In this document: positions 4,226 through 9,053 of the stretch, one piece after another
How positions within the stretch are numbered: position 1 is the first letter of the stretch
Layout of the letters: every line of letters begins with the position of its first letter
Origin: an uncultured Gammaproteobacteria bacterium
GTDB lineage: Bacteria > Patescibacteriota > Patescibacteriia > UBA2196
Direction: 5' to 3'
Assembly (NCBI GenBank): GCA_964435065.1
Contig: CAYSXS010000004.1
Coordinates: 1 to 55,855, forward strand
DNA: 55,855 nt
Made by a program: the position numbers and the translations under genes
The notes under the pieces: model-generated
Database searches by the model: none
What the model was told of the DNA's origin: nothing
What the model saw: only the letters and a program-made list of their open reading frames with translations

Positions 4226-4299
4226 CGCGGGGTAGAGCAGTCTGGCAGCTCGTTGGGCCCATAACCCAAAGGTCACCGGTTCGAATCCGGTCCCCGCAA
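4226..4299 (+). tRNA. Initiator tRNA-fMet(CAT)
   Basis: C1:A72 mismatch, three G-C pairs in anticodon stem (GGG/CCC); loop CCCATAA (C33). Confidence 0.95.
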
Positions 4300-4332
4300 T
4301 GAACAGATTCCACCCGAGTAGGGTGGTTTTTG
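4293..4332 (+). repeat. Direct repeat copy 1 (tRNA-fMet 3' end plus terminator), att-like
   Basis: CCCGCAATGAacagattCCAcCCGAGTAGGGTGGTTTTTG; 34/40 identical to 5601-5640. Confidence 0.8.
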
Positions 4333-4365
4333 GGTACTCCAATCACACGGGACTGTACGGTTACT

Positions 4366-4432: not shown

Positions 4433-4615
4433 ATGAAAGATAAGGAGCAATTTCTAAAAATTTATGCTAATTTGCCCTTAGGTGCTAGGGGTGAGATTAT
4501 TTGTGTACTAGAAAACGAACCCATCACATGGAATGTTGCTTACTTAGAAGTAAAAAATGATACTTCTGAAGGTATAAAAATTTTAAAAATTTTAAAAATT
4601 TTAGATATCATTTAA
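4433..4615 (+). CDS. Small hypothetical protein (60 aa), gene 1 of protease module
   Basis: ORF directly behind the promoter; 1-nt gap to next gene. Confidence 0.8.
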   Translation: MKDKEQFLKIYANLPLGARGEIICVLENEPITWNVAYLEVKNDTSEGIKILKILKILDII

Positions 4616-4616
4616 T

Positions 4617-4835
4617 ATGTCGGAAGAAAACAAAAAAAAGCAGATTAAAAAATTAGTTACTGAAAGACTAGAAGTTTTGCCTAGCAACAAAAGTATTTCA
4701 ATTGGTTCCGAAGGAAGTTTTTCCAAAGAGGATTTAATTGAAAGTGTTGAGAGAGGTGATGAGATTGGCAAAAAGATTACAAATATTCAGTTAAAATATT
4801 TGCGATCATTAAAAGAAGGTATTTTCTATGACTAA
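4617..4835 (+). CDS. Small hypothetical protein (72 aa), gene 2 of protease module
   Basis: Coupled to neighbours (1-nt gap upstream, 8-nt overlap downstream). Confidence 0.8.
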   Translation: MSEENKKKQIKKLVTERLEVLPSNKSISIGSEGSFSKEDLIESVERGDEIGKKITNIQLKYLRSLKEGIFYD

Positions 4836-5472
4836 ATTGTTGCTGATTACCAGACCTTACTATGACATTACAACTAGCTATCTATACCACTGGGCAGGGG
4901 AAATAATAGACAGCATTAAGAAGAAAGACATTCAGATATTAGATTTAAAGAAAGGTAGGGCTAACAAAAAAGAATTTAATAGTATTACAAAAAAGAAGCA
5001 ACCTTCTTTTGTTTTTTTAAATGGTCACGGAAGTTATGATCGTGTAACTGGTCAAGACGGCCAAGTTATTATCAAATCAGGTGAAAATGATGAACTTCTT
5101 CATGATAAAATAGTCTATGCTCTGTCATGTAAGTCAGCCAAGAAACTTGGGAAAACTAGCATTAAAGAAGGAGCTCAAAGTTATATAGGTTATACTGATG
5201 ATTTTGTTTTTTGTCTTGACCAGGACTTTGTGCAAAGGCCGTTAAAAGATGAAACTGCCAAGTTGTTTTTAAAGCCATCTAATCAATTAGTAAATAGTAT
5301 AATTAAGGGTCATCCCGTTAGAAAAGCTTGCGAGCGCGCTAAAGATTTATTTAAAAAGAATGCACAAAAGATTTTTGTTGAAAAATCATCAGGTGAATCT
5401 TACTTGATCCCTTATTTATTATGGGATATGGAACATTTAGTCTGTGAAGGAGATGATGATGCAGTTTTTTAA
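4828..5472 (+). CDS. Caspase/gingipain-fold (clan CD, C25/CHAT-like) cysteine peptidase, cytoplasmic
   Basis: FVFLNGHG (His67) and IVYALSC (Cys101), each after a hydrophobic beta strand, as in the clan CD dyad; no signal peptide. Confidence 0.7.
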   Translation: MTKLLLITRPYYDITTSYLYHWAGEIIDSIKKKDIQILDLKKGRANKKEFNSITKKKQPSFVFLNGHGSYDRVTGQDGQVIIKSGENDELLHDKIVYALSCKSAKKLGKTSIKEGAQSYIGYTDDFVFCLDQDFVQRPLKDETAKLFLKPSNQLVNSIIKGHPVRKACERAKDLFKKNAQKIFVEKSSGESYLIPYLLWDMEHLVCEGDDDAVF

Positions 5473-5600
5473 ACTTTGTGGGAAGTAAATTTTAAGTCAA
5501 AAACAATTAAACATAAGTTACTCTAGCCATCTTCGCATTCTGTTCAAATTTCCAAATCTCTTTAATATTCTCAACCAATTGGTGCAGATTCCGTTCTACT

Positions 5601-5640
5601 CCCGCAATGAGCGAAAACCATCCGAGTAGGGTGGTTTTTG
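5601..5640 (+). repeat. Direct repeat copy 2 (att-like), includes terminator hairpin
   Basis: CCCGCAATGAgcgaaaaCCAtCCGAGTAGGGTGGTTTTTG. Confidence 0.8.
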
Positions 5641-5668
5641 AGTTGAAATAGTGATATAATCAAGATAT

Positions 5669-6226
5669 ATGGGTAAAGCAATTTATGTTTTTATAGATGC
5701 ATCGAATTTATGGCAGGCTCAAAAAGCAAAGGGTAGGTTTTTAGATTACAAAAAAACAATTGATTATATAAAACAAAAATTTAATACTAAATCAATTAAA
5801 ATATTTTATTACACGGCATATCCTGCTGAAGGAACCAGAGATTATAGTCTAGATGGGAAACATAAATTTTTTACTTTTTTAAAGAAAGGACTACATTTTG
5901 AAGTAAGGAAAAAAGAGTTAAAAAGGATTTCGGTTGTTGACAAATATGGGGAATCTATAAAAGAAAAGGGTGATATGGATGTAGAGATAACAATAGACGC
6001 AATACATCATTTGAAGAAGTATGATATAGCAGTTTTCTTTACAGGTGATTCTGATTTTCTCGCGTTAGTGTCATATTTGAAAAATATCAATAAAAAAGTA
6101 TATATTTTTTCTTCACGAAATAATATATCTGAAGAGTTAAGAACTGGTGGAGATGGCTATTCTGATGTTTTAGAAATAAATAATATTTGGGGTAAGGAGT
6201 TACAATATAGGGAAGAAAAGAAATAA
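5669..6226 (+). CDS. NYN domain (PIN-like, LabA/DUF88) ribonuclease
   Basis: VFIDASN, KGDMDVEITID, TGDSDFLALV motifs. Confidence 0.9.
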   Translation: MGKAIYVFIDASNLWQAQKAKGRFLDYKKTIDYIKQKFNTKSIKIFYYTAYPAEGTRDYSLDGKHKFFTFLKKGLHFEVRKKELKRISVVDKYGESIKEKGDMDVEITIDAIHHLKKYDIAVFFTGDSDFLALVSYLKNINKKVYIFSSRNNISEELRTGGDGYSDVLEINNIWGKELQYREEKK

Positions 6227-6297
6227 AATCACCCTCCGCAAGGAGGGTGATTCTGGGATGTAATACCCTAACGGTTCTAGGACAGAACCGAAAGACA
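6225..6297 (-). ncRNA. Candidate ~70-nt structured small RNA convergent with the NYN gene
   Basis: Own promoter TTGACT(6331-6326)-17-TACTCT(6308-6303); 7-bp hairpin 6272-6290; 11-bp terminator stem 6227-6252 with U-rich tail on the minus strand only. Confidence 0.5.
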
Positions 6298-6397
6298 TAG
6301 TAAGAGTACAGTATTTAAATGAAAAAGTCAATATTTTATCCCCAACACTATAAATTAAGCTATTTAGCTATAATTTTTAATTAAAATATATAAACAT

Positions 6398-8206
6398 ATG
6401 CAAGAAGAAAATTTAACACCTGAATTAAACGAATATTCAGTAAAAAGATTTAGTTTTACTAAAAAGCTAGTTATAGGCATAATTATCTTTTTAGTAATCT
6501 TTTTTATTGCTTTAACTGTTTTTGCTTATTGGTTACTCAACTCACAGCAAGGAGAAGAAATAGTTTTAAAACAAGTTAATATTCAGTTACAAGATTTAAA
6601 AGATAATGATTCTAAATATAGTATTAGTGAAGTTAAGGAAACTTCAGAAGATGAATGGTTAGAATACAACCATGATATTTTGGGTATTAAATTTAAATAT
6701 CCAAAAGAATGGGGGAATCCACAAACTAGTCCTTCTACACAGATCACAGATTTAGAAACAATTACATCTAATTTTTATGGGGACAATATATATGTTAACT
6801 CAATATATATTAGTTTTCCTGAATCTGAGACACATGTAAGTATACGTTTGTTTAATGAATATTATGAAGGGGAGACATATACAAGTATTCCATATAGTGT
6901 TATTGATAATGTTAATAAATTAAAAGAAACAAAAAATGTTTGTGACTATAAAATAGATTTAGATAATAAACCAAATCCATTAAATACAGTTAAAGAAATA
7001 TATCAAGATTGTAAAAATGACACCAAAACAATATTAACAGAAGAAATAGAAAATTTTGTTGATTTTCCAGGCCCTAAAAAGAATTTTATTAAATATAGAT
7101 ATAAGTTAAGAACAAGAGCTTTTGGTAAATTACAAAATGGATATTTTGATAATATTCTAACTTCTTTTAATATTCATTCTGGACAGATTGATGATAGATT
7201 AAGTAATCTAGATGAATTTTCTAAAGTCTCTAAAGATTGGGATAAATATTTAGACATTAAAGATGATTTTGTAAAATTTACTAATAGTATAGAATCTTTT
7301 GAACTAGTTACTTTGCCTGAACCTGTTTTTGTAAAGATTCCTGGGGAAAAAGAGGATATTACAACTGTCCGTTGGTACTATTTCTTAATATCCAGTAATA
7401 GATTAGAAGAAGCATATGATATGTATAAAGTTAAGAATGTAGGTCTTGAAGAATACAAAGAATGGTATCAAACCACTTTTTTCATTAACCCATATAGCTT
7501 TGAAAGAATATCAGAGAATAGGTATAGGTTTTTTGTAGATTTACAAGATCATAATCGAAAGATGGAGAAATATAGAGTAACAATGGATGTACAAGACGGA
7601 AAGATAGACACGGTATTATCTGAACAAATTGTTCAAGATTGGGTATATTATGATAACTTATCAGCTTTTATTAAAAAAGTTAATGATATTAATTATGTTG
7701 TCTTAGATTTAGCTGGAGTAGAAGAAAAAATTATTGATCAATCTCCAGAAGTACCTGAAGAACAAAAACCTTGGGCTACACTTAGATTTACTAGTGTAGA
7801 ATTTTCTCCTTCAGGTAAATATTTAACATATAGGACATCTGGATGGGAGTGGGGTGGTTTTAAGGTTTATGATATTCAAAAACAAGATTTTGTGATTGAT
7901 AATTTAGATAGCCCTATTAATTGGTCTTTTATTAATAATGAAGAATATTTATATGCTTGTGCACACAGCATGATGAATGGGACCGTTTATGGGTATGTTT
8001 ATCGTTTGCCAGAATTTGATGTCATATATGATTTATTTGACGACAAAAGCAACGAAGGGTATATGAATTTAAGTTGTGAATATAATAAAGATGAAAATGT
8101 TGTTGGGTACAAGTTATGGGAGAAATATAACTTGGAGACGCAGAAGGTGGATAATGTAGAGAAGACTATAAAATATTCACTTGAATTAGAAAAAGAAATT
8201 GATTAA
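6398..8206 (+). CDS. Membrane-anchored extracellular protein (PsbP-like motif, C-terminal beta-propeller-like region)
   Basis: N-terminal TM; WLEYNHDILGIKFKYPKEW; VEFSPSGKYL beta-propeller-like repeat. Confidence 0.7.
   Translation: MQEENLTPELNEYSVKRFSFTKKLVIGIIIFLVIFFIALTVFAYWLLNSQQGEEIVLKQVNIQLQDLKDNDSKYSISEVKETSEDEWLEYNHDILGIKFKYPKEWGNPQTSPSTQITDLETITSNFYGDNIYVNSIYISFPESETHVSIRLFNEYYEGETYTSIPYSVIDNVNKLKETKNVCDYKIDLDNKPNPLNTVKEIYQDCKNDTKTILTEEIENFVDFPGPKKNFIKYRYKLRTRAFGKLQNGYFDNILTSFNIHSGQIDDRLSNLDEFSKVSKDWDKYLDIKDDFVKFTNSIESFELVTLPEPVFVKIPGEKEDITTVRWYYFLISSNRLEEAYDMYKVKNVGLEEYKEWYQTTFFINPYSFERISENRYRFFVDLQDHNRKMEKYRVTMDVQDGKIDTVLSEQIVQDWVYYDNLSAFIKKVNDINYVVLDLAGVEEKIIDQSPEVPEEQKPWATLRFTSVEFSPSGKYLTYRTSGWEWGGFKVYDIQKQDFVIDNLDSPINWSFINNEEYLYACAHSMMNGTVYGYVYRLPEFDVIYDLFDDKSNEGYMNLSCEYNKDENVVGYKLWEKYNLETQKVDNVEKTIKYSLELEKEID
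8136..8205 (+). repeat. 70-bp direct repeat copy 1 (3' end of the 602-aa gene)
   Basis: 67/70 identical to 9738-9807. Confidence 0.95.
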
Positions 8207-8452: not shown

Positions 8453-8468
8453 CATGGAGTTCATAACT

Positions 8469-9053
8469 ATGAAAAAAGGTAAATATATTTCTACAATTCT
8501 CAGATCAAAAAAAACTGTTTTTTCATTTAAAGATATAGTGATGTTATGGAGGGATTCTAGTAATGCAGTTAGAGTTAGGATTAATTATTATATTAAAGAT
8601 AACAGTTTGTATCATATACGCAGAGGTCTTTATGCTAAAGATAAAAATTACGATAGATTTGAATTAGCAACTAGAATATTTACACCTGCATATGTGAGTT
8701 TTGAAACAGTTTTAGGACAAGAGGGTATAACATTTCAATATTATGGGCAGATTTTTGTTGCATCATATTTGAGTAGAGAAATAAAATGTGATGGACAAAC
8801 ATATTCTTTTAGAAAAATAAAAGATAAAATTTTAATTAATAAAATAGGGCTAAAAAACAAAGGTGAATATCTAACAGCTTCAAAAGAAAGAGCATTTTTG
8901 GATGTGATGTATATAAACAAGGATTATTATTTTGATAATTTATCACCTCTTGATTGGGATAAAGTTTTTGAAATATTGCCAATATATGATAATAAAAGAA
9001 TGACAAAAAAAGTTAAGGAGATTTTTGAACGTCATAAAGAGGGTAAAAGATAA
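8469..9053 (+). CDS. abiEi: AbiEi-family antitoxin (type IV TA); ORF track start 8454
   Basis: N-terminal wHTH, IRRGLY, PAYVSFETVL, ASKERAFLD motifs; GGAG SD before ATG 8469. Confidence 0.85.
   Translation: MKKGKYISTILRSKKTVFSFKDIVMLWRDSSNAVRVRINYYIKDNSLYHIRRGLYAKDKNYDRFELATRIFTPAYVSFETVLGQEGITFQYYGQIFVASYLSREIKCDGQTYSFRKIKDKILINKIGLKNKGEYLTASKERAFLDVMYINKDYYFDNLSPLDWDKVFEILPIYDNKRMTKKVKEIFERHKEGKR

Follow-up and report, generated by a model that had tools for sequence, protein, structure and literature searches.

When the gene of a predicted ribonuclease (RNase) ends just where the signals for a transcript on the opposite strand are found, the question arises of whether the two belong together and, if so, what the one does to the other. 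This question is raised by a 55,855-nt contig of the Patescibacteriota (CAYSXS010000004.1, assembly GCA_964435065.1; GTDB Patescibacteriia, UBA2196), called the window here at its full length, in which the gene of a predicted NYN-domain RNase (5669..6226, plus strand, 185 amino acids (aa), stop codon TAA at 6224-6226) faces a promoter, a hairpin and a terminator on the minus strand. Comparison across genomes demonstrates that these signals make up a small RNA (sRNA) gene, that its structure and sequence are under purifying selection and that its linkage to the NYN gene is obligate. Our preferred reading, to which we give somewhat better than even odds (roughly 55%), is that the sRNA is the antidote of the NYN RNase, either by binding the protein, by pairing with the 3' untranslated region (UTR) of its mRNA, or by both. 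We further infer that NYN is a toxic or defensive RNase and that the pair may represent a new class of toxin-antitoxin (TA) system.

The sRNA gene is matched by the covariance model R1 at 6219..6298 on the minus strand with 98.3 bits, and the predicted transcript runs from about 6296 to about 6221. The promoter TTGACT-17-TACTCT that the initial annotation had read at 6331-6303 is present as described, with the -35 hexamer TTGACT at 6326..6331 and the -10 hexamer TACTCT at 6303..6308, both on the minus strand and separated by a 17-nt spacer. This -10 hexamer is weak and is absent from the output of a promoter scanner because it agrees with TATAAT at only three of six positions, while relatives carry TATACT, TATATT or TATAAT. 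The -35 hexamer is TTGACA or TTGACT in 45/81 loci, with TTG being near-universal. In 76/81 loci, a promoter scoring at least 8/12 is kept in register, with its -10 ending 4 nt before model position 1; the predicted start is accordingly near G3 (window position ~6296), and the RNA would be about 76 nt long.

The predicted RNA consists of a 5' GU overhang, a helix P1 of 11-13 bp, the 13-nt linker GGGUAUUACAUCC and the terminator helix P3. In the window, P1 (6268..6294, minus strand) has 11 pairs, a 2x2 U.U internal loop and the loop GUCCU, and 7 of the 11 pairs show double changes among 77 distinct sequences. The hairpin CGGTTCT/AGAACCG had previously been described as a 7-bp stem; it does exist, as part of this longer helix. 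Between the hairpin and the terminator stem the minus strand reads GGGTATTACATCC. The linker (6256..6268, minus strand) may form a mini-hairpin. GG as well as ACAUC with the preceding G are invariant in 80/80 loci, and the linker motif occurs a single time in the window with 0 occurrences expected by chance. P3 is the stem of an intrinsic terminator with 13 pairs, six of them G-C, at 6225..6254 on the minus strand, where an 11-bp stem at 6227-6252 had been proposed; the GC-rich stem and its one-sided tail thus stand, with other boundaries. The top of P3, CCUCC/GGAGG, is invariant, and its lower part covaries. The U-rich tail (6219..6228, minus strand) is complementary to the final codons of NYN and to its stop codon. 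After the stem, TTTTATTTCTTTTC follows on the minus strand only, while the plus strand continues with CTGGGATG, and a terminator scan calls the stem on the minus strand only. The earlier view that the hairpin ends a minus-strand unit and not the NYN mRNA agrees with this one-sided U tract and with the conserved RNA gene to which it belongs. An 86-nt minus-strand RNA folds at -34.4 kcal/mol, compared with -16.9 +/- 2.7 for shuffled sequences (z = -6.45).

The sRNA is present as a single copy in the 944-kb genome, and no tandem repeats were found within 5300-6700, which rules out a repeat element. A known RNA family is ruled out by searches of Rfam (release 15), in which the whole window gave four tRNAs and nothing else at the gathering score, and the segment 5480-6420 gave no minus-strand match, and nothing near threshold, at E <= 10.

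Selection on the RNA is evident from its variation. In the 77 distinct sequences, 96% of the helix cells are paired and 14 pairs show double changes, values that 0/500 shuffles reach and from which slid registers are likewise far off. Both helices covary. The helix cells contain 255 G.U but only 6 A.C combinations, from which it follows that selection maintains the helices in the minus-strand transcript rather than in the NYN 3' UTR. These observations bear on an objection to an RNA gene, namely that the stem is the terminator of NYN next to a chance promoter-like site, or that a small open reading frame (ORF) starts at the 5' AUG. The weak -10 in the window would fit this, as would the AUG at the start of the RNA, with NUG being common in relatives. 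Conservation, covariation, strand asymmetry and an in-register promoter speak against chance, however, and the U tract is on the wrong side for NYN. No conserved reading frame was found in the sRNA family: 33/57 NUG-starting sequences have in-frame stops at varying positions, and length changes are not multiples of three, so that a small protein gene at the 5' NUG is ruled out. The comparative data exclude both a chance terminator and a small ORF, and the probability left for this explanation is negligible.

How tightly the RNA is tied to the nuclease can be seen at three levels of sampling. In 40 relatives, close NYN orthologues (64-79% aa identity) are found in 7 genomes, patchily over different families and orders, and the downstream segment is 71-85% nucleotide-identical in every one of them. 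In 401 genomes of the same class, searched with R1 as built from 8 copies, one strong sRNA copy each occurs in 25 genomes (about 6%), again patchily across families; a NYN orthologue (E <= 1e-30) is present in 19/401, and the sRNA is adjacent and convergent in 19/19. The next-best NYN paralogues appear only at E >= 1e-24, which makes the link specific to this subfamily. Finally, a scan of one genome per species yielded 149 NYN relatives, the best 80 of which were tested with the covariance model: the sRNA lies on the opposite strand right after the NYN stop in 80/80, and the model 3' end overlaps the stop by 2-8 nt in most. The initial annotation had proposed a search for conserved structure downstream of NYN homologues, and these 80 matches provide it.

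Among the Patescibacteria, the cassette is found in Kuenen-, Falkow-, Magasanik-, Jorgensen-, Giovannoni-, Staskawicz-, Moran- and Doudnabacteria and others. It is also present in a cultured member of the Bacteroidota, Niastella vici DJ57 (NZ_LVYD01000041.1, locus L227, 2501-3160), with a NYN protein of 67% aa identity, an sRNA of 72.9 bits and a TTGACC / TGtTATACT promoter, beside a 547-aa large serine recombinase; this looks like a cross-phylum transfer. In the literature on NYN proteins with an RNA antitoxin, a small RNA or Patescibacteria, no description of a NYN-sRNA pair was found.

The protein half of the pair matches the PF01936 profile at residues 5-163 with 76.8 bits (cut-off 24.2; E 3.1e-21), and its AlphaFold model has a pLDDT of 84.8. 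The nearest folds to this model are VPA0982 (PDB 2QIP; TM 0.71/0.81) and the NYN domain of MARF1 (TM about 0.58/0.70), with the subfamily being only 25% identical to 2QIP. As the acidic residues (D10, D104, D127 and D129) do not vary across 26 NYN orthologues and the model adopts the NYN fold, the protein is predicted to be, and looks like, an active enzyme. In PADLOC, the protein aligns with the C-terminal half of the generic 'LabA-like NYN nuclease' profile of 310 positions (E 9.7e-12) and weakly matches HEC-09 (E 8e-5); no system assignment follows from these matches. The gene has an extended -10 promoter, TGaTATAAT (5652..5660, plus strand, read from the sequence), which lies 8 nt upstream of the ATG and therefore implies a leaderless or near-leaderless mRNA without a Shine-Dalgarno sequence. 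The layout TGnTAnnnT-N6-10-ATG is common among orthologous NYN loci, and the remaining upstream sequence is unconserved. These unconserved and often leaderless upstream regions speak against an sRNA acting on the NYN 5' UTR.

Conservation is highest in the linker, with a mean pairwise identity of 0.87, while the whole sRNA reaches 0.74. The corresponding values for NYN are 0.69 at the amino-acid level, 0.80 at codon positions 1+2, 0.45 at the third codon position and 0.29 at four-fold sites. As the linker exceeds even codon positions 1+2 of NYN, and as antisense pairing in cis needs no such conservation, the linker is probably read by a protein or another fixed partner. This speaks against an explanation in which the convergent sRNA simply tunes NYN by antisense pairing or transcriptional interference, the NYN protein being a benign enzyme of RNA metabolism. 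Such plain regulation would fit the convergent arrangement without a plus-strand terminator and the presence of RNase III, which is encoded on contig C9 of the same genome, and no toxin is known among the LabA-type NYN proteins. Besides the primary-sequence conservation of the linker, a cassette that is mobile, patchy and found in variable regions and a loss that is one-sided count against it, and we consider it distinctly improbable.

A near-invariant linker could also mean that the sRNA is a guide or cofactor that stays on NYN as a ribonucleoprotein, with the linker pairing with a conserved target of the host or an invader and directing cleavage. Near-invariance across ~100 loci fits a conserved target, the linker is single-stranded between two helices, and a basic beta-hairpin insertion of the NYN protein (residues ~78-100, motif VRKKELKRI), which is conserved in this subfamily, could hold the RNA. 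The search for targets argues otherwise. No complement of the linker stands out in the own genome, where two 14-mers at 2 mismatches are all that was found; for 23S rRNA and tRNAs, even the best duplexes fall inside the background distribution. Complementarity to the codons of the catalytic motif of NYN is not kept at synonymous sites either, and the RNA also survives in loci with a destroyed or missing NYN, where a guide would be useless. A guide role is thus quite improbable in our view. Two individual candidates were rejected. A 12-bp complement of the linker (GAUGUAAUGCCU) lies near the 3' end of the 23S rRNA (contig C8 of genome G000, ~40055, minus strand; -17.2 kcal/mol); it belongs to the 0.1% background tail after about 850 windows, in a region that is not universally conserved, and was judged coincidental. 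Duplexes with tRNAs were no better than this match. Pairing of the linker with the GDMDVE codons of NYN (GGAUGUA) shows no sign of selection, since the Asp codon GAT is used in 84% here versus 73% elsewhere and the Val codons are evenly spread.

A further argument for an antidote comes from the way in which cassettes decay. Full-scoring RNAs are found beside C-terminal remnants of NYN of 47 aa (G310), 35 aa (G043) and 72 aa (G170), and also beside NYN genes broken by a frameshift (G145) or an in-frame TAA (G171). This was extended by starting from the RNA: the 17-mer AGGGTATTACATCCAAG gave 120 matches in metagenome contigs, and the covariance model was applied to the 40 of these in which NYN was neither intact nor contig-cut; it confirmed 35 and rejected 5, so that 115 loci were counted as real. 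In the 99 that could be judged, NYN is intact in 66, disrupted in 16 (5 frameshifts, 2 stops, 9 remnants) and missing in 17. No intact NYN without sRNA was seen among ~90 loci found from the NYN side. The RNA is kept where NYN has been lost and the reverse was never seen, a pattern that is expected if NYN is harmful without the RNA. The roles first proposed for the RNA were those of antitoxin, guide or substrate; from this list the comparative data favour the antitoxin, as the RNA persists where NYN has decayed or been lost. Two orphan RNAs have other neighbours, assigned by eye: in locus L060 (G315:C14, 1501-2388) the RNA faces a 73-aa RelE/HigB-like ORF with a 165-aa DUF4065/Panacea-like partner, and in L320 a 127-aa MazF/PemK-like ORF.

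Two further features concern what the RNA faces and what may control it. Opposite the linker, the NYN 3' UTR contains GGAGG (6242-6246), 11 nt and ATG-TAA (6258-6263), that is, a Shine-Dalgarno-like element with a start-stop at 6242..6263 on the plus strand. As the complement of the linker is AUG-stop with GGAGG upstream, the sRNA is antisense to both. The ATG is directly followed by a stop in 80/94 distinct family members (TAA 60, TGA 15, TAG 5), the distance from the last GGAGG-like pentamer to the ATG is 10-11 nt in the 69 sequences where a pentamer was found, and a second NYN subfamily has AGGAGG-N8-ATG at the same place. Selection on the plus-strand AUG-stop is not demonstrable in these sequences, since the UGA and UAG variants can arise by simple transitions and no significance attaches to the lack of UGG; the AUG-stop is a lead only.

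Just upstream of the -35 of the sRNA, at 6336..6344, lies the DnaA-box-like 9-mer TTATCCCCA, one mismatch from TTATCCACA. Of the 80 loci L169-L248, 16 have a perfect box (TTATCCACA or TGTGGATAA) in the 90 nt that precede the sRNA 5' end, with both orientations represented; 15 of the 16 lie 43-52 nt upstream, just 5' of the -35, and one lies at 80 nt. The background in the same loci is 0.018 per kb, by which about 0.13 boxes would be expected, and the own genome has 51 perfect boxes. This enrichment suggests control of the sRNA promoter by DnaA in a subset of cassettes.

These features must be considered together with the orphan RNAs, as they would also fit an sRNA with a cellular function of its own for which NYN is a dedicated processing or turnover enzyme, or a mere passenger. 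The RNA persists with its promoter and full model score without NYN in the 17 orphan loci and in G315, its anti-Shine-Dalgarno (CCUCC) and anti-AUG (CAU) elements resemble those of sRNAs that target translation-initiation regions, and 20% of the loci have a DnaA box at the promoter. By contrast, an sRNA found in ~6% of the class genomes, patchily across families, is not a housekeeping RNA, and no intact NYN orthologue is without the sRNA, which is placed tail-to-tail at a fixed distance; an overlap of 2-8 nt would not be preserved over ~100 loci by a mere passenger. Many orphan RNAs retain NYN 3' remnants and are therefore derived from full cassettes. An independent function is unlikely on balance, even if it is the least improbable of the rival explanations.

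Several points nevertheless count against an antidote for a toxic or defensive RNase. The asymmetry of decay is partly biased, as the RNA is a seven-fold smaller mutational target; sampling from the RNA side is blind to lost RNAs, and some of the frameshifts may be assembly errors. Orphan RNAs in genomes without a cognate NYN (G310, G315) could mean that the RNA has its own function. As annotated, the RNA and the NYN ORF overlap by no more than 2-8 nt, and antisense control therefore hinges on a putative read-through. With regard to a defence role, the NYN subfamily was not found on the viral contigs, phages or plasmids searched: a viral 14-mer scan gave 0 covariance-model matches in 80 scored of 100 returned loci (L149-L168 left out), no viral relatives were obtained by protein or protein-alignment search, a phage search returned nothing, and the only plasmid matches were ~30%-identical Sinorhizobium proteins.

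If the sRNA is the antidote, two routes of action are plausible, and they are not mutually exclusive. In the first, which resembles type III systems, the sRNA would bind NYN, and its single-stranded linker, flanked by two helices, would occupy the active site in the manner of a pseudo-substrate. Direct binding is suggested by the invariance and single-strandedness of the linker and by the observation that other NYN subfamilies face different convergent sRNAs. In the second, which resembles type I systems, the NYN mRNA would lack a terminator of its own and read through the sRNA gene, so that the sRNA could pair with a 3' UTR carrying GGAGG-N11-AUG-UAA and the duplex could be cut by RNase III. 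Antisense control is suggested by the fixed tail-to-tail overlap, the lack of a plus-strand U tract and the presence of RNase III. Without a U tract after the hairpin on the plus strand, read-through is plausible, and the sRNA and the NYN mRNA would be fully complementary only where the mRNA extends past the shared hairpin. Interference from convergent transcription may contribute as well. In either case, a fall in the short-lived RNA, for example upon phage shut-off of host transcription or loss of the cassette, would leave NYN freed or over-made, and the freed enzyme would degrade cellular or invader RNA.

The other NYN subfamilies (~30-35% identical; L010, L011, L013, L020, L026, L031) have near-consensus convergent promoters facing NYN. 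Their sRNAs are short, of the hairpin-plus-terminator kind and unrelated in sequence, with one type in L013 and L020 and another in L026 and L031, and DnaA boxes lie near three of these six loci. Different convergent sRNAs for different NYN subfamilies are as expected of cognate pairs.

The genomic surroundings define the extent of the unit. In an all-against-all comparison of ORFs in the flanks of 81 loci, NYN is the sole ORF common to all, and the NYN gene and sRNA are therefore, as judged from these flanks, a self-contained, horizontally mobile two-gene cassette of about 700 bp. Its neighbours vary and include rsmA, queA, a kinase, restriction subunits, a LexA-like gene and a serine recombinase. 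In about 8 of the 81 loci (L178, L187, L203, L213, L215, L219, L246 and others) the cassette lies within an operon with the LexA-like (S24 peptidase) gene, the further partners being a ~666-aa protein and a restriction specificity-like subunit, and NYN starts right after the upstream stop. In the window, the cassette is preceded by a 1.3-kb islet between 43-nt direct repeats (4293-4335 and 5601-5643, 84% identical), each made of a tRNA-Met 3' end and terminator, which bracket three small ORFs (4433-5472). Between the second copy and the NYN start lie 25 nt, so that the NYN promoter directly abuts the terminator of the islet. Downstream, a 602-aa gene (6398-8206) has no counterpart in 8 close relatives, and this lack of conservation makes an empty-site comparison in close relatives uninformative. 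It is followed by a 199-aa ORF (8454-9053) for an AbiEi-type antitoxin (PADLOC PDLC02255, E 2.5e-61), so that the region from the tRNA cluster to ~10 kb is a series of small accessory cassettes (tRNA-Met islet, NYN-sRNA, AbiEi).

The Patescibacteria, or Candidate Phyla Radiation, make up a large share of bacterial diversity, and their small RNAs and TA biology are almost uncharted. Here, a covarying RNA gene is tied one-to-one to a PIN-like RNase in ~5% of the genomes of a class and in several other classes. Should the RNA prove to be an antidote, RNA-antitoxin systems would gain a toxin fold and a genetic layout that are both new to them, and a first handle on RNA-based regulation in Patescibacteria would be available, with Niastella vici DJ57 as a tractable organism carrying the ~700-bp cassette.

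To place the cassette among known systems, both type I and type III must be considered. Sharing of a terminator is a feature of the par RNA I/RNA II pair of pAD1. The type I loci bsrG/SR4 and txpA/RatA of B. subtilis have convergent antitoxin RNAs that overlap the 3' end, and in bsrG/SR4 the RNA duplex is cut by RNase III (PMC3834814, PMC6562991). The NYN cassette resembles these two loci in that a small RNA gene with its own promoter converges on its partner gene and is complementary to the 3' end of the mRNA, and in that the cassette is compact, mobile and patchy; as to the bsrG/SR4 precedent, RNase III is encoded in the genome here too. It differs from them in the protein, a predicted soluble NYN RNase of 185 aa and not a small membrane peptide, and in an ORF overlap of 2-8 nt. 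The small and usually hydrophobic peptide toxin of type I is not found here, neither as the NYN protein nor as a conserved small ORF in the RNA. Unlike cis-antisense type I RNAs, the sRNA is strongly conserved in primary sequence.

Among type I systems with enzymatic toxins, RalR/RalA and SymE/SymR likewise have a nuclease-type toxin under the control of a small RNA. RalR is a DNase whose RNA, RalA, is encoded in trans and complementary over 16 nt, and the overlap of SymR is with the ribosome-binding site and 5' end of SymE (PMC4041452, PMC4147584). By contrast, the NYN mRNA is often leaderless with an unconserved 5' region, its RNA faces the 3' end, and the folds of the proteins are unrelated.

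In type III systems (ToxIN, AbiQ/antiQ, CptIN, TenpIN), a tandem-repeat antitoxin lies upstream on the same strand and is processed by the toxin (PMC3401426, PMC8860590). The NYN pair shares with them an endoribonuclease (predicted here) and a structured, sequence-conserved RNA that co-diversifies with the protein, which fits direct neutralisation, and the conservation of the linker is compatible with a type III-style binding of the toxin. Unlike the co-transcribed upstream repeats of type III, the sRNA is one convergent, non-repeated unit with its own promoter (no repeats in 5300-6700), and the protein has a NYN/PIN-like and not a ToxN-like fold.

On the protein side, fold and acidic residues are shared with VPA0982 (2QIP), the MARF1 NYN domain (6FDL, 5YAA) and a CRISPR-associated NYN ribonuclease (bioRxiv 10.1101/2024.04.08.588522). 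The titles and abstracts found for these NYN/LabA-like proteins make no mention of a dedicated partner RNA gene, and the basic beta-hairpin insertion (~78-100) sets the present subfamily apart from them. A tentative extension of the antidote reading, which we regard as possible but rather doubtful, would be a nuclease module under RNA control that forms a class distinct from both type I and type III. In such a module, a single convergent RNA would neutralise the RNase via its linker while masking the Shine-Dalgarno sequence and AUG-stop in the NYN 3' UTR. Through its promoter, wired to DnaA in a fifth of the cassettes, release of the nuclease would depend on the state of replication or infection, and the NYN subfamilies with their own cognate RNAs would together make up a major system of the Candidate Phyla Radiation, accessory or defensive in kind.

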